A stretch of 64,000 nt of DNA, taken from assembly GCA_031430855.1 (NCBI GenBank), contig JANPCG010000015.1, forward strand, positions 68,522 through 132,521, in the 5' to 3' direction. The translations under genes were made by a program, and so were the position numbers. Positions 9,695-30,900 of this stretch are shown here, in pieces. How positions within the stretch are numbered: the first letter of the stretch is position 1; every line of letters starts with the position of its first letter. A model generated the notes under the pieces. It had not been told where the DNA came from. It saw only the letters and a list, made by a program, of their open reading frames with translations, and did no database searches. Source of the stretch: Candidatus Kaiserbacteria bacterium (GTDB lineage: Bacteria; Patescibacteriota; Minisyncoccia; Phycocordibacterales; UBA918).

Positions 9695-10756
9695 ATGACA
9701 ATTGATTTTGATGCAGAAATTGTAGCGCACCTCGAGCAAGTCAGACGACTGCAGAAACCGTCTGGGGTATTTACTGCCTCCGCGCACGATGTAGCGACTG
9801 GATACGACAAGGCGTGGCTCCGTGATATTTATTTTATGACTCTCGGGTTTCTTGAGACGGGTGAGATTGAAGTGGTACAAAAAGCAGCCCGAGCCTTACT
9901 CGAAGTATTTGTAAAACACGAAGCAAAAATTAATTGGGCAATCGAACATCGTCCACATGAAACCTGGCAGCGCATTCATGCCCGTTTCCATCCTGAGACC
10001 TTTGAGGAATATTGGGAAGAGTGGGGAAATAGTCAGAACGATGCGGTGGGTGAAGTCCTTAATATTATTGTTGAGCTCGAATTGTGTAATGCGAGTGTAG
10101 TACAGACCGAAGACGAGCGAGAGGTGGTACAAAAAATTATCAACTACCTCGTTGCACTTGAGTATTGGCAAGATCCAGACAATGGCATTTGGGAAGAGAA
10201 TATGGAGGTCCACGCCTCATCAGTTGGTTCCTGCGTGGCGGCGCTAAAGAAAGCAAAAAATGTCCCTTGGCTTAGCGTTCCTGATGATTCGATCACTCAA
10301 GGTGAAATTGCTCTTCGTAATATGTTGCCACGCGAATCAAAAACAAAATTTGCTGACCTGGCGCTACTCTCGCTGATCTATCCATTTGCCGTGACGACAC
10401 CGGAAGAGACGGAAACTATTTTACGTAATGTAGAGTACCATCTCACTCGAGATAAAGGGGTAATTCGATATAAACTCGACCGCTATTATAATCAAAATGA
10501 AGATGGATACAGTGAAGAGGCTGAGTGGTGTTTTGGATTAGCGTGGCTCGCGATTATTTATGCCGAGCGCGGTGAGAAAGAAAAGGCCTACTACTATCTC
10601 AGGCGGGCAAAAATGACCGTTACTCCAGCCGGTCAGGTTCCTGAGCTTTACTATTCACACACTGAAATACCAAACGACAATACACCGTTAGGTTGGGCAG
10701 AGAGTATGTATGTTGTGGCGCTTCAAAAAGTAAAGGAGATGGATATTCGAGGTTAG
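9695..10756 (+). CDS. Glycoside hydrolase family 15-like (glucoamylase-related alpha/alpha barrel) protein
   Basis: WLRDIYFMTLG ... NGIWEENMEVH ... GLAWLAIIY resemble the GH15 W-x-RD and WEE catalytic-region motifs. The protein is short for a complete GH15. Confidence 0.45.
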   Translation: MTIDFDAEIVAHLEQVRRLQKPSGVFTASAHDVATGYDKAWLRDIYFMTLGFLETGEIEVVQKAARALLEVFVKHEAKINWAIEHRPHETWQRIHARFHPETFEEYWEEWGNSQNDAVGEVLNIIVELELCNASVVQTEDEREVVQKIINYLVALEYWQDPDNGIWEENMEVHASSVGSCVAALKKAKNVPWLSVPDDSITQGEIALRNMLPRESKTKFADLALLSLIYPFAVTTPEETETILRNVEYHLTRDKGVIRYKLDRYYNQNEDGYSEEAEWCFGLAWLAIIYAERGEKEKAYYYLRRAKMTVTPAGQVPELYYSHTEIPNDNTPLGWAESMYVVALQKVKEMDIRG

Positions 10757-10844
10757 TCCAAATGTCATACGAAGAAGTATTATTTTGTAATAAACAAGGC
10801 AAAAATGCGTAGTAATTAGTGTTAGAAATTAAATTACGATAGAC

Positions 10845-10874
10845 ATGACAAAAAAGCTGTATTTGCAGGAGTGA
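10845..10874 (+). pseudogene. Silent 5' fragment of msrA (ATGACAAAAAAGCTGTATTTGC...) fused to repeat-element copy 1
   Basis: At least 16 nt are identical to the start of the msrA CDS at 11160 (atgacTaaaaaagctgtatttgcC). A 1-nt deletion shifts the frame into a TGA inside the repeat hairpin. Confidence 0.4.
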
Positions 10875-10952
10875 AGAAGTGTTAAGACACTTCTGCAAGA
10901 GGTTGCCTGCTATTTTGAAGAATGAAAAATAGCGACAACCTGAACAGGTTCT
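10868..10952 (+). repeat. Structured repeat element, copy 1 (hairpin1 GAAGTGT-taag-ACACTTC; hairpin2 AGGTTGCCTGCTATTTT..AAAATAGCGACAACCT; hairpin3 TTCTGTAAGAA)
   Basis: Homologous to the segments at 11046-11130, 17544-17734, 30509-30714 and 26236-26310. Differences in the hairpin arms are compensatory. Confidence 0.6.
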
Positions 10953-11007
10953 GTAAGAACTGCATTTAGGTAAACGTTTTAATAAATACTCTTTAACAAC
11001 ACATACC

Positions 11008-11046
11008 ATGATCAAGACTGCTGTGCTGGCCGGAGGATGTTTCTAG
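11008..11046 (+). pseudogene. Second silent msrA-like 5' fragment (MIKTAVLAGGCF*) fused to repeat-element copy 2
   Basis: ggatgtttctAggg matches msrA ggatgtttctGggg (GGCFWG) with TGG changed to TAG. A hairpin of the repeat follows immediately. Confidence 0.4.
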
Positions 11047-11130
11047 GGTGAGACAGTCCGGGGGACTGTCGCAAGAGGTTAACGGCTATTTTGGAAAAAT
11101 AGCGATAACCTGAACAGCTTCTGTAAGAAG
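11046..11130 (+). repeat. Structured repeat element, copy 2 (hairpin1 GACAGTCC-ggg-GGACTGTC; hairpin2 AGGTTAACGGCTATTTT..AAAATAGCGATAACCT; hairpin3 CTTCTGTAAGAAG)
   Basis: Same architecture as copy 1 with different hairpin sequences that are still complementary. Confidence 0.6.
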
Positions 11131-11159
11131 TGGATGACCTATTCGTTAATATTTATTTT

Positions 11160-11654
11160 ATGACTAAAAAAGCTGTATTTGCCGGCGGATGTTTCTGGGG
11201 CATGGAAGACCTCTTTCGCGACCTCCACCCCGGCATCATTTCTACGGAAACAGGCTATACCGGAGGAACAAACGAAAACCCAACCTACCAAAATCATCTC
11301 GGACATGCGGAGGCGATTCAGGTCGAATACGACGCCACCAAAATTAGCTATCGCCAACTTCTCGATTTTTTCTTTCGGGTTCATAATCCAACGACGCTTA
11401 ATCAGCAGGGGAATGATCGTGGTACGTCATACCGGTCAACCATTTTCTATGGGAACGATGAGGAAAAAGCTGAAGCAGAGGCATTTATCGATCTCGTGAA
11501 TGAATCTGCACGTTGGGAAGATCCGGTTGTGACAACGCTCGAACCCCTCACCCGGTTTTGGCCTGCGGAAGATTATCATCAAGATTATTTAGTGAAGAAT
11601 CCAGGTGGATATACCTGTCACGCAATACGATTCGAATCATATTTAAAGCAGTAA
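11160..11654 (+). CDS. msrA: Peptide methionine sulfoxide reductase MsrA
   Basis: MTKKAVFAGGCFWGMEDLF...GYTGG...YHQDYL contains the GCFWG active-site motif. The ORF extends to 11130, but the start is taken at ATG 11160. Confidence 0.9.
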   Translation: MTKKAVFAGGCFWGMEDLFRDLHPGIISTETGYTGGTNENPTYQNHLGHAEAIQVEYDATKISYRQLLDFFFRVHNPTTLNQQGNDRGTSYRSTIFYGNDEEKAEAEAFIDLVNESARWEDPVVTTLEPLTRFWPAEDYHQDYLVKNPGGYTCHAIRFESYLKQ

Positions 11655-16064: not shown

Positions 16065-17561
16065 ATGTCTCGCATGGATGGATTGGTCGTCTTTAGTGAC
16101 GTCTCATATGAATATGATGCAACCCGGCCAATTTTAAAAGCGGCCAATTTTGTCGTGCGACGAGGTTCAAAACTTACTCTGATGGGTCAAAATGGTGCCG
16201 GCAAAAGTACCCTTTTTGCTTTGATTATCGGCCATCTTAAAGTGGACGAGGGCGATATTAACATTCAACCACGTACCACCATTGCGGTCTCGCGTCAGAT
16301 TATTCCACGGCCTGAATTAGAACTCACCGTCCGAGCATTTTTTGAACAGTGTTTTACTGAAAAAGTCTACGATATTGACCCTAAAATTGATGACGTGCTT
16401 GAGATTGTAAACTTGGTGCCAACAGAGAAAATGAAAGAGGAATTCAAGGACCGTATAATTGGTAGCTTCTCAGGTGGTCAGCAGGCGCGCTTGCTTTTAG
16501 CACAGGCGTTGATTCAGAACCCGGATGTTCTTCTGCTTGATGAGCCAACGAATAATCTTGATGTGGCTGGGATTGACCACCTCACCTTGTTCCTAAAGGA
16601 CTACAAGAAAACGGTATTGGTAATTTCCCACGACGCTGATTTTCTTAATTCATTTACTGACGGAGTACTCTACCTGAATGTTCAAAATCGTCAGGTGGAA
16701 CAATATAATGGAAATTATCATGCGGTCTTAAAAGATATTGCAGCTCGGGTGGAAAAAGAACAACGTCAAAACGCACAGCTTGCTAAAGAAATCCAAGCCA
16801 ACAAAGACAAAATTAACTACTTCTCGAATAAGGGCGGGAAGATGCGGCTGGTTGCTAAACGGATGCGGGACGAAGTCGAGGAAGCGGAAGAGAACAAAGT
16901 CGATGTGCGGCGTGAAGATCGGACGATTCGTCCCTTTACCATTGAAACCCAGCCGGAGGTACCGGTTGATGTAGTGAAACTCTCGTCATATAAAGTAATT
17001 CGTAATCATCAGCCCAAAGACGTGGAATGTTCCCTCATTATTAAGCGTGGTTTTCATCTTCAGATTATAGGTCCAAACGGAATTGGGAAAACCACGCTCT
17101 TGGAGTCTCTGGCGTCAGGTCATGCGAAAGGGGAGCATATTGCAGAAGGGGTAAAAATTGGCTACTACCGTCAGGATTTTTCTAATCTTGAGTTTGATAA
17201 AACAGTATTTGAAACATTGATGGATTCGATGTCAAAGAAAATTGAAGAAGATATGAGGTCTGTCGCCGCTGGTTTTCTTTTAACTAATGACGTGATGAAA
17301 ACTCGCGTGGGAAATCTCTCTGAAGGACAAAAAGGGCTGGTTGCCTTTGCCAAGCTGACGATGGAGCGGCCAGGCCTCTTGATTCTCGATGAGCCAACAA
17401 ACCATATCAATTTCCGACACATCCCGGTGATTGCCGAAGCCTTAAATGAATATAAGGGTGCCATGATCTTGGTTTCTCACGTCCCTGAGTTTGTGGAGCA
17501 AATTCGTATTGATGACGTACTTGATTTGGGTAAAGAGAGCAAACGAGTGAGAAGTGACTAA
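16065..17561 (+). CDS. ABC-F family ATPase (tandem ABC domains, no TM; translation-factor type)
   Basis: Two Walker A motifs (GQNGAGKST; GPNGIGKTT), two signature motifs (LSGGQQARLLLA; LSEGQKGLVAFA) and two Walker B motifs (LLLDEPTNNLD; LILDEPTNHIN). The last 6 codons and the stop lie inside repeat copy 3. Confidence 0.85.
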   Translation: MSRMDGLVVFSDVSYEYDATRPILKAANFVVRRGSKLTLMGQNGAGKSTLFALIIGHLKVDEGDINIQPRTTIAVSRQIIPRPELELTVRAFFEQCFTEKVYDIDPKIDDVLEIVNLVPTEKMKEEFKDRIIGSFSGGQQARLLLAQALIQNPDVLLLDEPTNNLDVAGIDHLTLFLKDYKKTVLVISHDADFLNSFTDGVLYLNVQNRQVEQYNGNYHAVLKDIAARVEKEQRQNAQLAKEIQANKDKINYFSNKGGKMRLVAKRMRDEVEEAEENKVDVRREDRTIRPFTIETQPEVPVDVVKLSSYKVIRNHQPKDVECSLIIKRGFHLQIIGPNGIGKTTLLESLASGHAKGEHIAEGVKIGYYRQDFSNLEFDKTVFETLMDSMSKKIEEDMRSVAAGFLLTNDVMKTRVGNLSEGQKGLVAFAKLTMERPGLLILDEPTNHINFRHIPVIAEALNEYKGAMILVSHVPEFVEQIRIDDVLDLGKESKRVRSD

Positions 17562-17734
17562 TGTCACTTCGCAAGACCTTGCCTGCTCTTTTGGAAAAAG
17601 AGCGACAAGGTGTACCGCTTCTGTAAGAAGTAGCGACTATTGCGAACTTTGTTCCCGATTTGTCCTCCTAAGGCTAAAACGTGATTTAATATCACGTTTT
17701 AAAACCATTTGAGATATTTTGAATTAATGAAAAA
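17544..17734 (+). repeat. Structured repeat element, copy 3 (long form: hairpin1 GAAGTGAC-taat-GTCACTTC, hairpin2, hairpin3, then hairpin4 TTAAAACGTGAT-t-ATCACGTTTTAA and a conserved ATTTGAGATATTTTGAA tail)
   Basis: About 85% identical to copy 4 over about 190 nt. The ABC-F stop codon sits in the hairpin1 loop. Confidence 0.65.
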
Positions 17735-17868
17735 TATCCAAATGGTGTACTGCTCCTGTAAGGAGAAGCGCTGGAGCGTATACTCCAATACTTTTGAATA
17801 CATACGTTATTTCCGTATTTTGCACCCTTGGTCCTTGAACTGGTATACTAGGGCACGTCATTTGCTGT

Positions 17869-18894
17869 ATGAAAAATATTATCTTTGGAATCCTTCTTCT
17901 TGGCATCGTCGCTGCTTGTGGGGGTGGCGCGTATTATTTTGCCACGCAGTATTCTTTTTCCCCTTCTTTGTCTCCTGCTTCATCAGCAGAATCTAGTCAA
18001 CCACCTGCTTCAACTGGCCCCGCAACTGGCCTGGTTTTTGCAAAGCGTACGTTTGTCGTTCCGCCAACAGGAAGTACTACGACAGAGCTCCTCTATGTTG
18101 CTGCTACCAGTATCAGGGATTACCCTATGGGACGCTATACCACAGAGGACGGTCGAGCCGCTACTCTCATGGCCTACGAGGACTACGTGTCATCGTTTGA
18201 AAATAATCTCCGCGTAATTCCCATTTCTATAAATATTGGAAACGCCGGTGAGCAGTTCTACCTAGCCCTTCTCGAAGGAGAAGAGATGAAACATACGAAC
18301 TCATTCTACATAGGCGAACAAATTAGACTTCAGTCGATAACCCGATTAGGCAATCAAGTTACCGTAAATTACTTTGTACACGACCGCGATCAAACATTTG
18401 CTGAGCGACCGCGAGTTAATACCACGGCGATATACGATCTTGTTGAAAAAAAGATTGTTCAGGCTGGGCGGACACCTAAAACAGAAGCGGTTGTTGTTAT
18501 GAAAGATTTTAAGGGTAAGTATTTGTGGGTAAAAACAGTACCAAAAGATGGCGATGAGGTGACACCCAATCAACCAGATAAATTCGGTGTACTCTTTAAT
18601 ACCAATCAAATTGAAATTCAAACAGACTGTAATTTAGGAAACGCGAGCTTCAGTGCCGAAGCTGGTTCGTCTACGGTATTTACCCTGGGTGAGATTGCGG
18701 CCACCAAAATGTTCTGTGAGAGTGCACAAGAAACGATTTATTTTGATATGTTTAAACAAGTTGACCGTTATGAAGAAGCAGAAAATGGTGATCTCACACT
18801 CTACTTCCGTGACGATGCTGGATATATGGAATTTGTCCCAGCCGGCAAAACACTTGAGTTTGAGGCAACTTCAACCACCGCCACGTCTTCGTAA
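17869..18894 (+). CDS. Lipoprotein with C-terminal META (HslJ-like, DUF306) domain
   Basis: Lipobox LLLGIVAAC. The C-terminus TDCNLGNASFS...ATKMFCESAQETIYFDMFKQVDRYEE matches the META-domain pattern. Confidence 0.55.
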   Translation: MKNIIFGILLLGIVAACGGGAYYFATQYSFSPSLSPASSAESSQPPASTGPATGLVFAKRTFVVPPTGSTTTELLYVAATSIRDYPMGRYTTEDGRAATLMAYEDYVSSFENNLRVIPISINIGNAGEQFYLALLEGEEMKHTNSFYIGEQIRLQSITRLGNQVTVNYFVHDRDQTFAERPRVNTTAIYDLVEKKIVQAGRTPKTEAVVVMKDFKGKYLWVKTVPKDGDEVTPNQPDKFGVLFNTNQIEIQTDCNLGNASFSAEAGSSTVFTLGEIAATKMFCESAQETIYFDMFKQVDRYEEAENGDLTLYFRDDAGYMEFVPAGKTLEFEATSTTATSS

Positions 18895-24000: not shown

Positions 24001-26172
24001 ATGGCTCGAGAATTTCCGATTAATCGCATGCGTAATTTCGGTATTGTGGCGCACGTTGACGCTGGTAAAACCACGACGTCTGAACGAGTTCTTTTTTATA
24101 CCGGAATGTCCCACAAAATTGGTGAAGTACACGATGGTGCTACGGTAACTGACTGGATGGAACAAGAGCGAGAACGTGGTATTACGATTACCGCGGCGGC
24201 GATTTCCTGTAACTGGTCTAAATCTGAAGTGGTGGACCGTAAAGATCGGTCGCAGATGTACAACTTTAACATCATTGACACTCCCGGCCACATTGACTTT
24301 ACGGCTGAAGTAAAGCGTTCAATGCGTGTACTTGATGGAGCGGTCGTCGTGTTTGACTCAGTAGCTGGGGTAGAGCCACAATCTGAAACGAACTGGGGTT
24401 ATGCTGACGAGGCTGGGGTGCCACGTATTTGTTTTGTAAATAAAATGGACCGCCTGGGAGCCGACTTTGAAAAGTCGTATGCCAGTATCCTTGACCGACT
24501 CTCAAAGAAAGCGGTTCGAATCCAACTACCGTGGGGTGCTGAGGATCAGCTCAAAGGAGTCATTGATTTGATTAAGATGAAGGCCTTTGTGTTTGAAGGT
24601 GAAATGGGGATGACTGTTCGAGAAGTAGAGATCCCTGCCGAACTACAAGCTGATGCCGAAAAATACCGCGCAGAGCTTATTGAGCGTGTAGTAGAGCATG
24701 ACGACGCGATGATGGAGGCCTTCCTCGAAGGTAATTTGCCAACCGATGCTGACCTCAAAGCAACGTTGCGTAAGGCGGTCTTGGGTAACCAGCTCTTCCC
24801 GGTGATGACGGGTTCAGCCCTCAAAAATATTGGGGTACAGCTCGTGCTCGATGCGGTGGTTGATTACCTACCAGCTCCGACTGATTTGCCACCAGTTCGT
24901 GGAATTAATCCAAAAGATGATTCAGAAGTCACCCGTACGGCGAGCGATGAAGAACCGTTCTGTTCACTCGCGTTTAAGTTGCAGACTGACCCATTTGTTG
25001 GACAGCTGACCTTCTTCCGGGTTTACTCAGGTGTGGTAAAAGCCGGAAGTTATATTTATAACTCAACCACAGGTGAACGTGAACGACTCGGGCGAATTGT
25101 ACGACTCCAAGCTGACAAGCGAACTGAAATCGAAGAGGTATACGCGGGAGAAATTGCTGCCGGAGTAGGACTCAAAGACGTGAAGACATCGCATACACTC
25201 TGTGATGAAGCAAAGCCAATCATTCTCGAACAAATTGTCTTCCCAATGCCCGTGGTAGCAATGCGCGTTGAACCTAAAACTAAAAACGACCAAGAAAAGA
25301 TGGGGACTGCACTCCGTAAACTGGCAGATGAAGATCCAACCTTTATCGTATCGTCAGATGCTGAAACAATGGAAACAATTATCGCGGGTATGGGAGAACT
25401 CCACTTGGAAATTCTTGTTGACCGTATGAAGCGTGAGTTTGGAGTTGAGGCAAACGTGGGTGCTCCTCAGGTAGCCTACCGCGAGACGATTCAGCGCGCA
25501 GCCGAAGCCGAATACAAGTACGTCAAACAATCAGGAGGTAAGGGTCAGTACGGTCACGTTAAGATCCGCATCAAGCCACTTGAAGCGCTTGATCCAGAAG
25601 CGAAGGTTGCAAAAAATGTCACTCGTGAAGATCATTTTGAGTTCGTCAACAGTATTAAGGGAGGGGTAATTCCACAGGAATTCATCCCAGCCGTTATGAA
25701 GGGTGCCAAAGAAGCAATGGCCCGCGGTCAAGTTGCTGGCTACAAAATGGAAGATGTTTCTGTCGAGTTGTACGATGGTAGTTACCATGATGTTGACTCT
25801 TCGGAAATTGCCTTTAAACTAGCCTCTATTTATGCCTTCCGTGAAGCAGCGAAGAAGGCGAGTGCCGTGCTCTTGGAGCCAGTCATGAAGATTGAAATTC
25901 GTACCCCTGAGCAGTTCATGGGCGATGTCAACGGAAATATTTCAAGTAAGCGTGGACAGGTAGAAAGTATGGGTGAATTAGGTGACAAAAAAGTGGTTAC
26001 AGCATCGGTACCGCTTTCAGAGATGTTCGGGTACACGAATACCCTGCGCTCAATGACCCAAGGTCGGGCGAGTATGACGATGACCTTTGACCACTACGAT
26101 GTTGTACCGCCAAACGTATCATTGGAGATTCGTAAGGCAAGAGGCGTCAAAGACATAGAAACCGAAGAATAA
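24001..26172 (+). CDS. fusA: Elongation factor G
   Basis: NFGIVAHVDAGKTTTSERVL...DWMEQERERGITI...DTPGHIDFT and full-length EF-G domains (723 aa). Confidence 0.95.
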   Translation: MAREFPINRMRNFGIVAHVDAGKTTTSERVLFYTGMSHKIGEVHDGATVTDWMEQERERGITITAAAISCNWSKSEVVDRKDRSQMYNFNIIDTPGHIDFTAEVKRSMRVLDGAVVVFDSVAGVEPQSETNWGYADEAGVPRICFVNKMDRLGADFEKSYASILDRLSKKAVRIQLPWGAEDQLKGVIDLIKMKAFVFEGEMGMTVREVEIPAELQADAEKYRAELIERVVEHDDAMMEAFLEGNLPTDADLKATLRKAVLGNQLFPVMTGSALKNIGVQLVLDAVVDYLPAPTDLPPVRGINPKDDSEVTRTASDEEPFCSLAFKLQTDPFVGQLTFFRVYSGVVKAGSYIYNSTTGERERLGRIVRLQADKRTEIEEVYAGEIAAGVGLKDVKTSHTLCDEAKPIILEQIVFPMPVVAMRVEPKTKNDQEKMGTALRKLADEDPTFIVSSDAETMETIIAGMGELHLEILVDRMKREFGVEANVGAPQVAYRETIQRAAEAEYKYVKQSGGKGQYGHVKIRIKPLEALDPEAKVAKNVTREDHFEFVNSIKGGVIPQEFIPAVMKGAKEAMARGQVAGYKMEDVSVELYDGSYHDVDSSEIAFKLASIYAFREAAKKASAVLLEPVMKIEIRTPEQFMGDVNGNISSKRGQVESMGELGDKKVVTASVPLSEMFGYTNTLRSMTQGRASMTMTFDHYDVVPPNVSLEIRKARGVKDIETEE

Positions 26173-26234
26173 TTAATAAAAAAGCACCCCTTCGGGGGTG
26201 CTTTTTTATTAATTATTCTTCGTATGTCTTTGAC
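26146..26234. repeat. Long (~40 bp arm) inverted repeat spanning the fusA stop codon and centred on the terminator hairpin
   Basis: GTCAAAGACATA(gaaac)CGAAGAATAATTAATAAAAAAGCACCCC-ttcg-GGGGTGCTTTTTTATTAATTATTCTTCGTATGTCTTTGAC. Confidence 0.6.
26178..26208 (+). terminator. Rho-independent terminator after fusA
   Basis: AAAAAAGCACCCC-ttcg-GGGGTGCTTTTTT. Confidence 0.85.
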
Positions 26235-26235
26235 G

Positions 26236-26310
26236 GACCCTGCGAGCTACTTTGTAACCAAGAGGAAACAAAGTAGCCACAGGGTGTACAGTTCCTGTAA
26301 GGAATCAAAC
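26236..26310 (+). repeat. Diverged copy 5 of the structured repeat element (hairpin GCTACTTTGT..ACAAAGTAGC, then GGGTGTACAGTTCCTGTAAGGAA)
   Basis: Aligns with the core of copies 1-4, GCAAGA..hairpin..GGTGTACCGCTTCTGTAAGAAG. The hairpin3 arms are compensatory (TTCC/GGAA versus CTTC/GAAG). Confidence 0.45.
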
Positions 26311-30508: not shown

Positions 30509-30714
30509 CGAGTGAGAAGTGACTAATGTCACTTCTCAAGACCTTATCGCTCTTTTGAAAAAAAGCGATAAGGCTGTAATTGCATCCTAATGCAATCTGC
30601 GGAGTGATATTAAGTCATTCCTCACCCTGCTCATTTCTCACCCCTCACCTAGGGCTGAAACGTGATTAAATATCACGTTTCAGAGCTATTTGAGATAGTT
30701 TGAAGCGTGAAAAC
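30509..30714 (+). repeat. Structured repeat element, copy 4 (long form, same hairpin1 as copy 3; hairpin2 CCTTATCGCTCTTTT..AAAAGCGATAAGG; hairpin4 CTGAAACGTGAT-taaat-ATCACGTTTCAG)
   Basis: Aligns with copy 3 along its whole length. Hairpins 2 and 4 carry compensatory substitutions. Confidence 0.65.
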
Positions 30715-30900
30715 TGTCTAAAGGTATGCAGATCCTGCGAGGAAGTTTATCCGTCTCTTCTCAACTTGATTATTTAACTACTTTAATAATGCTTTAGACA
30801 GTATTTGTGTGAACACAAAATCCTTCGTGGGGTCCATTCTGGGTGTGTGCACAAAGTCTGTGTGTAGCCGTTTTAAATGATAAACTTTGCTTAACCTTCT

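Follow-up and report, generated by a model that had tools for sequence, protein, structure and literature searches.

Short hairpin repeats of bacterial genomes, e.g., the repetitive extragenic palindromes (REP) and the related BIME and REPIN, carry a 5′ GTAG head and are mobilised by RAYT proteins, i.e., IS200/IS605-like Y1 HUH transposases. Integrative elements, such as the phages and islands residing in the 3′ ends of tRNA genes or e14 and phage 21 in icd, rebuild the gene end which they interrupt. Patescibacteria possess tiny genomes with little spare DNA, and, to our knowledge, little is known about their mobile DNA. The stretch considered here (hereafter, the window) comprises 64,000 nucleotides (nt) from a Candidatus Kaiserbacteria bacterium (GenBank assembly GCA_031430855.1, contig JANPCG010000015.1, positions 68,522 to 132,521 of the forward strand). 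In the window, the gene msrA is preceded by two truncated copies of its own start, each abutting an 83-90-nt three-hairpin element named E. E is an uncatalogued family of small non-autonomous mobile repeats widespread in Patescibacteria; in distribution and form it is closest to the REP/BIME-type and other miniature non-autonomous repeats and, in its consequence, to the integrative elements rebuilding gene ends. With a probability of roughly 55%, the insertion of E is coupled to a short duplication of the target, and at gene ends only the arrangement keeping the gene survives.

The initial annotation of this locus described two silent fragments of the msrA 5′ end stacked upstream of msrA, each fused to a repeat, and both are indeed present. 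The gene (PF01625 PMSR, 164 amino acids) is intact and separated by a spacer of 403 nt from a GH15 gene ending at 10756. The locus is composed as follows (bit scores are those of the covariance model R1, see below):

10845..10871, plus strand: pseudo-copy 1 (msrA 5′ end, nt 1-28, one nucleotide of the A-run being deleted), ending in GGAG that abuts element 1; repeat family D4
10871..10960, plus strand: E copy 1 (element 1), R1 73.6 bits, E-value 4e-19, fold of -30 kcal/mol, z -3.8
10961..11007, plus strand: spacer 1, AT-rich, ending at the ATG of pseudo-copy 2
11008..11048, plus strand: pseudo-copy 2 of the msrA 5′ end (msrA nt 1-41), ending in TAGGG that abuts element 2
11046..11130, plus strand: E copy 2 (element 2), R1 73.5 bits, fold of -32.1 kcal/mol, z -3.8
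11131..11145, plus strand: continuation of pseudo-copy 2 past element 2, homologous to msrA 11203-11218
11146..11159, plus strand: spacer 2 (TTAATATTTATTTT), AT-rich filler linking pseudo-copy 2 to the start of intact msrA
11160..11654, plus strand: msrA

The first 62 nt of msrA (11160-11221) were aligned locally against the 403-nt spacer, and the scores were compared with those from 2000 shuffles of the spacer and from 308 other 404-nt chunks of the window. Two independent matches to the msrA start reached a score of 21 versus a null maximum of 17 (shuffles) and 15 (chunks), so the proposed similarity is better than chance; the repeat search in the window recovered the same msrA start copies as families D2 and D4. 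In the first match, 10845-10869 aligns with msrA 1-26 with a single 1-nt gap in the A-run, downstream of which the reading frame is lost, in agreement with the frame-shifting deletion reported earlier. In the second, 11008-11048 aligns with msrA 1-41 at an identity of 31/41 (~76%); its translation is MIKTAVLAGGCF followed by a stop, the msrA counterpart being MTKKAVFAGGCFWG.

The breakpoints of homology were originally believed to coincide with the repeats, and this view had to be given up. Past element 2, the sequence TGGATGACCTATTCG (11131-11145) continues the msrA sequence TGGAAGACCTCTTTCG (11203-11218) for ~15 nt; the third-best local match of the msrA 5′ end is situated at 11131-11143, and the anchored extension yielded a post-element part of 13 nt and a skip of 2 nt. 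The skipped msrA dinucleotide, CA (11201-11202), is absent from pseudo-copy 2 and element 2 is found in its place. Since the msrA homology resumes past element 2, the latter represents an insertion within a truncated msrA copy. The beginning of spacer 1 may also be a decayed continuation of msrA, by analogy with the second unit (pseudo-copy plus element) and with other loci: TGCATTTAGG, compared with TGTTTCTGGGG, gives 8/22 ungapped matches to msrA 11190-11211, which alone is not significant. Spacer 2 is homologous neither to msrA nor to the sequence preceding pseudo-copy 1. It harbors the motif TAATAT 7 nt ahead of the msrA ATG, which may, judging from its letters, act as a promoter; a promoter scan returned no match in this spacer.

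The identical 403-nt spacer, with no more than two single-nucleotide polymorphisms (SNP), occurs in five contigs from different samples, and the arrangement is therefore not an assembly artefact. A population SNP (G/T) is located at 11123, in the loop of the third hairpin of element 2, and the breaks of Logan contigs ~66 nt upstream of msrA coincide with it. A single arrangement was encountered in the five long contigs and four short Logan contigs (nine in total) encoding identical MsrA, and no structural variants of the locus were detected among them.

The repeats, initially taken for single hairpins, turned out to be more elaborate. Across the family, E is ~75-105 nt long, non-coding and non-autonomous, and conforms to the consensus GUGAG - hairpin H1 - GCAAGA - long hairpin H2 - UGNACNG - hairpin H3, where the H3 loop region, CUGUAAG, is invariant. 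Copy 1 is organized as (G)TGAAG-H1-GCAAGAG-H2-CTGAACAG-H3, its first G being common to the target, and copy 2 as GTGAG (at 11048) followed by H1-GCAAGAG-H2-CTGAACAG-H3; the two copies align over their full length and bear compensatory differences in all three hairpins. In the alignment of 106 non-redundant copies, from which R1 was built, standard pairs fill 95.3% of the cells (69.8% after shuffling), double changes are present in 13 of the 16 base pairs, and the covariation score amounts to 0.687 versus 0.208 upon shuffling and at most 0.19 with slid partners. The count of G-U pairs on the written strand of this alignment (53, versus 22 A-C mismatches) suggests that this strand is the folding one. 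In the window, R1 finds seven copies of E, five strong and two decayed, all on the plus strand.

The motif pattern of E was scanned over one genome per bacterial and archaeal species and recovered at least 119 loci. Among the matches listed, nearly all are titled Patescibacteria, the lineages including Kaiser-, Nomura-, Zambryski-, Taylor-, and Lloydbacteria along with others. In 2.9 million viral contigs, the pattern was matched only once, and a phage origin of E was rejected on this ground. Rfam 15 at its gathering thresholds gave no match in the entire 64-kb window, and with the threshold relaxed to E <= 10 the best match within 10700-11300 scored 16.6 bits versus a cut-off of 43 bits; a literature search for such an element in Patescibacteria retrieved nothing relevant. 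An abundant family of structured elements absent from Rfam has thus been defined.

The mobility of E is manifested by the comparison of sites with and without it. Two further copies in the window are as follows:

17547..17630, plus strand: E copy 3, R1 79.7 bits, 6 nt before the original stop of an ABC-F ATPase gene
17674..17765, plus strand: E copy 4, R1 61.7 bits, fold z -7.9, diverged (AAAACC in place of GCAAGA), present also in L216

In L216, a 98%-identical relative (L numbers denote the loci compared), the site of copy 3 is empty and reads AAACGAG-CG-TAGCGAC; the window reads AAACGAG-(TGAG...GAAG)-TAGCGAC. The ABC-F ATPase open reading frame (ORF; 16065-17561) ends now at a TAA in the H1 loop of copy 3, its C-terminus being converted from KRA to KRVRSD: a few residues are altered and the gene is not destroyed. 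In L010/L216, a second E is nested within element 1 of the msrA locus, where it replaces GT. Generally, a filled copy has the form A-(TGAG..E..)-B and an empty copy the form A-NN-B, the skip being 2 nt in 16 of the 22 measurable cases. As far as can be read from such alignments, E inserts after a purine-G (RG) and replaces the next two nucleotides, the RG preference being weak. Thus, the signature of E insertion includes an RG target, a loss of 2 nt, and, frequently, a short duplication which keeps the target gene intact.

The orientation of E relative to the GC skew shows no bias (44 versus 33, p = 0.25), and same-strand and opposite-strand cases relative to the flanking genes are about equally frequent. 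The occurrence of E in both orientations argues for an element operating at the DNA level, not for an mRNA signal. Pfam searches of 30 proteins of the window revealed no transposase, reverse transcriptase, integrase, recombinase, or RAYT. A search for a partner gene, carried out by clustering 549 ORFs located within 1.5 kb of E at 119 loci, returned no recurring candidate family, only housekeeping ones (EF-G, UvrA, ValRS, SecY).

The arrangement of an E-interrupted partial copy beside an intact gene, with the uninterrupted copy always joined to the gene body, is not confined to the msrA start in the window. It was found at the following genes:

tRNA-Asn: E-bearing partial copy in five genomes (L018, L074, L101, L056, L119)
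tRNA-Phe: E-bearing partial copy of the 5′ end (L124) and of the 3′ end (L020)
tRNA-Ile: E-bearing partial copy (L066)
tRNA with a group I intron: E-bearing pseudo-copy of the tRNA 5′ end just upstream of the intact tRNA (L038)
5S rRNA: E in antisense orientation (L135)
start of a GH1-like gene: E-bearing partial copy (L025, L043)
msrA 5′ end: four further lineages (L010, L013, L069, L136), all at TTCTGG(GG) of the GCFWG codons, with differing E subtypes
msrA 3′ end: reverse-oriented E (L012, L013, L015)

The differing subtypes of E at the same msrA site suggest repeated, independent events. As a side observation, the intron of L038 (7319-7578, RF00028, 88 bits) lies inside the intact tRNA.

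The link between duplication and E is strict at msrA. Of the 64 msrA loci compared, the four that have E upstream all possess a partial copy of the 5′ end there, and the 60 lacking E have no such copy (~1.6e-6 by our own Fisher calculation); direct partial copies of the 3′ end downstream of msrA are, by the same token, limited to the three loci with E downstream. Over the family, the upstream flank is repeated downstream of the element (in direct orientation, score of at least 13) for 24 of the 137 E copies, the control maximum being 11. For 13 of 22 cases, the duplicated segment measures 47-56 nt, irrespective of where E lies in it. A strictly constant length was rejected, given that this mode is accompanied by a tail reaching ~113 nt. 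A negative correlation between the lengths of A and B was also discarded: it is significant only after selecting the 47-56 range, i.e., circular, and is not relied upon.

The history of the msrA locus can be outlined on this basis. Unit 1 is, by its sequence, an E placed after GGAG (codon 9-10) and replacing GA; unit 2, read in the same way, is an E placed after TTCTGGGG in the GCFWG active-site codons and replacing CA. Unit 1 is probably the older one; the second event would have duplicated the gene start of that time and thereby moved unit 1 upstream. The orthologous pseudo-copy 1 in the 98%-identical relative L010 reads ATGACAAAAACAGCAGTTCTGGCTGGAG and resembles the msrA start of more distant relatives, e.g., L013. 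In the window, pseudo-copy 1 is nearly identical to the present msrA start and contains an msrA-like central tract, AAAAAGCTGTATTTGC, not found in L010; this looks like a ~20-nt gene conversion from msrA combined with a slip in the A-run. In an 82%-identical lineage, contigs sharing one MsrA protein differ in this respect: one unit is present in L013 and L014, flanked by a perfect 42-43-nt repeat beginning at the ATG, and none in L015. The L015 contig is short and may just as well derive from a deletion. Judging from these comparisons, gene conversion and deletion between the repeats do take place at msrA, and they display no sign of programming.

Recombination at the repeats, as proposed initially, is therefore borne out by the conversion tract and the presence/absence of units; its programmed variety is not, there being no sign of it and no recombinase among the 30 proteins. 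Similarly, the fragments are relics of duplication tied to E, as one of the earlier suggestions had it, only that the duplicated piece is ~50 nt long and not the whole gene. All this settles the nature of the silent msrA starts as insertion scars, neither a regulatory nor a variation system.

In comparison with the REP/BIME/REPIN repeats, E is likewise short, abundant, non-coding, hairpin-forming, mostly intergenic, and mosaic or nested. It also has a conserved 5′ head ahead of a hairpin (GUGAG, as compared with GTAG in REPs) and no adjacent transposase, and the conservation of its structure fits an action on single-stranded nucleic acid. At the same time, E comprises three different hairpins with joining motifs instead of one palindrome or an inverted pair, replaces two target nucleotides, and resides in short duplicated gene ends; among the 30 window proteins and near E, no RAYT was detected, and the orientation of E is free of a GC-skew bias. 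The miniature elements derived from IS200/IS605 (PATE) insert in a strand-specific manner 3′ of a fixed tetra- or pentanucleotide, leave the target unchanged, and exhibit a replication orientation bias. E was not assigned to them in view of its weak RG preference, the loss of 2 nt, and the lack of an orientation bias (44 versus 33).

With the integrative elements, E shares the hit in a conserved gene end and the displaced silent partial copy beside the intact gene, a copy which may differ by synonymous or conservative changes. The integrative elements, however, measure kilobases, carry an integrase gene, and separate the two copies; E, at ~90 nt, lies inside one of them, is met at 5′ as well as 3′ ends and in either orientation, and can insert with no duplication. 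Duplication of att sites by an integrase was accordingly rejected: E is situated within one of the copies and is bordered by target homology at either end, and no integrase is present among the 30 window proteins.

The non-LTR retroelements (R2, LINE/SINE) move by target-primed reverse transcription, which, in the case of R2, leaves a target deletion of 2 bp. E resembles SINE and R2 as a small structured non-autonomous passenger with a small target deletion, a variable duplication, filler at junctions, and conserved RNA-gene targets, but it lacks both a neighboring reverse transcriptase and an A-rich tail, and the duplication is not symmetric around the element. We know of no target-primed non-LTR retroelements in bacterial hosts. 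The Rickettsia palindromic elements, Correia (NEMIS), RUP, and ERIC are also small structured repeats sometimes altering ORF ends, as E does at 17547; they feature terminal inverted repeats with a short fixed duplication, or are translated in frame, whereas E has neither terminal inverted repeats nor a fixed duplication. A classical miniature transposable element with terminal inverted repeats was rejected on similar grounds, since the ends of E (GTGAG... and ...CTGTAAGRNN) are not inverted repeats and its insertion involves a 2-nt loss and no duplication of this kind. An integron attC site was rejected as well: the outer stem has GTT on its 5′ side and AAC on its 3′ side, opposite to R″/R′.

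Finally, E resembles the IStrons, a concept described in PMC4227781, and the group I/II introns: all are mobile insertions at conserved sites of essential genes, with the host gene remaining functional. The 5′ end of E, GUGAG, recalls the group II consensus GUGYG. In the case of E, in contrast, harmlessness stems from DNA duplication and not from RNA splicing; because two target nucleotides are removed, splicing could not restore the gene. The assignment of E to introns was rejected on account of its small size, the antisense cases (5S rRNA in L135, the msrA 3′ end), the absence of an Rfam intron match, and the intact copy always found alongside.

The coupling of insertion to duplication, to which the above probability applies, would proceed as follows. 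E would have entered the 5′ coding sequence of msrA twice, each time with a near-tandem duplication of the target, often ~50 nt long and extending from the start codon to 10-20 nt beyond the point of insertion. The truncated copy, located upstream, would receive E, and its downstream counterpart would stay with the gene body, so that msrA remains intact. A possible route is the entry of E into single-stranded DNA, i.e., a displaced flap or a nascent strand, at the replication fork; the hairpin-laden strand would then be ligated and not removed, with the result that the target is duplicated in tandem and one of the copies contains E. Where the site is dispensable, recombination between the repeats would collapse the duplication, leaving a simple insertion or an empty site, while at the end of a needed gene only the empty site or the full duplicated arrangement would be viable. 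Related small elements probably also generate short near-tandem duplications. That insertion and duplication constitute one event is what we infer.

If the coupling is mechanistic, it would mean an unusual life of a selfish element inside essential conserved genes without splicing, and it would account for many puzzling partial copies of tRNA, rRNA, and gene starts in Patescibacteria. Such copies affect annotation (false short ORFs, pseudo-tRNAs), break assemblies at the repeats, and may supply promoters or leaders to housekeeping genes. The main interest resides in the element family within duplicated conserved gene ends and less in the msrA locus itself. A bolder version, to be entertained only tentatively, regards E as a new kind of mobile element whose integration chemistry itself yields a gene-sparing ~50-nt duplication with E in the expendable copy. 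E would then settle in those sequences of a minimal genome that are conserved best (tRNA D-arms, 5S rRNA, active-site codons), and these would serve as universal landing pads or homology arms for its spread across Patescibacteria, driven by an enzyme or by a mechanism based on RNA or single-stranded DNA.

Several observations weigh against the coupling. The two youngest insertions (the window site at 17547 and the nested E in L010) are simple and lack a duplication; therefore, the duplication is either not obligatory or collapses quickly. The duplicated length has a tail up to ~113 nt upon lenient extension, the spacer between the copies (0-60 nt) is left unaccounted for, and the part following E is usually more diverged than the part preceding it. 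In L069, the post-E part is nearer to the msrA of another lineage, which hints at horizontal transfer of ready-made cassettes. In a survey of the 119 genome loci L017-L135 plus L216 and L217, 28 of 84 tRNA genes possessed a partial copy of their own end within 350 nt, and 18 of these 28 had no E core nearby. In a few of the E-free cases no element is recognisable between the copies, e.g., in L114, where the 5′ end of tRNA-Ile is copied over 36/36 nt at 44 nt upstream; several other E-free copies carry another small element family. E-free copies of tRNA ends being common, a general duplication process independent of E must exist. In addition, neither an enzyme gene among the 30 proteins of the window nor a gene family recurring near E has come to light, and the flap route is our own, speculative proposal.

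The alternative that survives best, while still being rather unlikely, is that E lands in pre-existing redundant copies, the duplications arising separately by slippage, through other small elements, or from failed integrations. E would prefer conserved motifs (GGTAGAG/CA, TTCTGGGG/NN, the slash marking the point of insertion) and be tolerated only in a redundant copy. The simple recent insertions with 2-nt replacement and no duplication, as well as the frequent E-free copies of tRNA ends (18/28) in the same genomes, speak for this scenario. So does an old tandem duplication of a ~115-nt intergenic segment in L216 (16377-16700, compared with 17631-17870 of the window). Its copies are 100% identical over the first 44 nt and only ~70% identical over the remainder, and E is present only in the second of them, the empty copy preceding the filled one. 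The window has a single, E-bearing copy; the difference at 17670 is also compatible with a collapse of the duplication. On the other hand, none of the 60 E-less msrA loci has a 5′ partial copy, although all four E-bearing loci and the window have one; a duplicated state still free of E would need to be rare and yet be hit time and again. The differing subtypes of E at msrA suggest independent events, and the duplicated length clusters at 47-56 nt in E-bearing cases.

The spread of ready-made cassettes (gene-start copy - E - continuation - spacer) by natural transformation and homologous recombination appears distinctly improbable as a replacement for the coupling. Here, the conserved gene sequence would provide both homology arms with the cassette looped out, and the msrA fragments would be partly foreign. 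Compatible with this are the targets, which are among the most conserved sequences (the tRNA D-arm, 5S rRNA, and the GCFWG codons), and the pre-E part, which is often perfect next to a diverged post-E part (43/43 versus 9/10 in L013). In L069, moreover, the post-E sequence GGAAGACC is nearer to the msrA of other lineages than to its own GGAGGATC. Pseudo-copy 2 shares no more than 76% identity with the resident msrA start and nevertheless encodes the conservative peptide MIKTAVLAGGCF; its divergence may equally reflect age, and the resident msrA start has itself changed in comparison with the relatives. Cassettes would account for the spread, but not for the first origin of each of them, and different E subtypes at the same msrA site argue against descent from one cassette.

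The reading of E as a cis-acting RNA of the msrA leader, i.e., a tandem riboswitch or an element of processing or stability with the short ORFs as leader peptides, has very little left in its favor. The conserved covarying structure, the tandem arrangement of two copies immediately before a stress-response gene, and the G-U wobbles favoring the written strand (53 versus 22) would suit it. E, however, occurs beside unrelated genes, at their 5′ and 3′ ends, within pseudo-copies of tRNA and 5S rRNA, in either orientation, and is polymorphic in presence between near-identical genomes; ~60 other msrA loci, including ~20 from relatives of at least 63% identity, do without it. The upstream ORFs, which the initial annotation offered as possible leader peptides, are not conserved: pseudo-copy 1 of L010 reads differently from the frameshifted one of the window, pseudo-copy 2 of L010 has TGG in place of the stop and reads on, and the cases of tRNA and 5S rRNA cannot involve leader peptides at all. 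A tandem riboswitch or a leader-peptide attenuator was rejected with reference to the absence of E from 60 of the 64 msrA loci, its position at unrelated genes in both orientations, and the non-conserved upstream ORFs.

The cassette-like exchange of 5′ ends put forward at the outset, taken as a programmed system or as phase variation by a site-specific recombinase acting at the elements, is scarcely credible: apart from the conversion-like tract of pseudo-copy 1 and the unit present in L013 and missing from L015, which it would explain, no alternative joins of fragments to msrA were seen (one arrangement in all nine contigs with identical MsrA), no recombinase is found among the 30 window proteins, direct repeats lead to deletion and not to reversible switching, tRNA genes of the same architecture have no conceivable variant product, and the fragments, one of them frameshifted, are direct repeats encoding nearly the same N-terminus as msrA, so that their exchange creates no diversity.

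The remaining copies of E in the window lie next to fusA and rpsJ:

26222..26304, plus strand: E copy 5, R1 49 bits, H2-TGTACAG-H3 kept, following an inverted 3′ end of fusA
30512-30579 and 30655-30744, plus strand: two decayed E copies downstream of rpsJ, R1 24.9 and 16.3 bits

Hairpin H3 of E (NNYC-UGUAAG-RNN) resembles the anticodon arm of tRNA. In L074 (2924-3050, minus strand), the anticodon loop of a pseudo-tRNA-Asn beside E is mutated from CUGUUAA to the H3-like CUGUAAG, and the E copy of L136 (1150-1165) has CUGUUAAG in H3. The likeness could be a coincidence or a result of conversion between the two. The window itself (1-64000) spans the S12/S7/EF-G/EF-Tu/S10 ribosomal region, yet no tRNA gene was found in it.

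A second small element family, with the layout ..CCGGAG-hairpin-CGAGGCGG / CGCG-hairpin-CUGUGAC, was encountered at L023 (4800-5010), L037 (5454-5680), and L126 (3392-3610; all in locus coordinates) as well as at L053, L059, and L068. It is flanked on one side by an intact tRNA and its terminator and on the other by a direct repeat of the final 16-22 nt of this tRNA; the sequence bordering the element on the 5′ side, 7-13 nt long, is an inverted copy of the piece of the T-arm located 3′ of it. E often inserts into this second element at GGCGG/GT/CGCG, giving rise to a composite "long form".

The 3′ end of fusA (EF-G, ORF 24001-26172), together with its terminator, forms an extended perfect palindrome (window 26145-26235). 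Its arms of 28 nt (26163-26190/26195-26222) and 13 nt (26145-26157/26223-26235) are 100% complementary and are interrupted by a gap of 5 nt, which is confined to the gene side. Thus, ~28 nt at the end of the fusA ORF, stop included, are found inverted past the terminator loop, directly followed by E copy 5. The same order of gene end, hairpin, inverted gene end, and element is also seen after tRNA genes in L023, L042, L084, L091, and L110.

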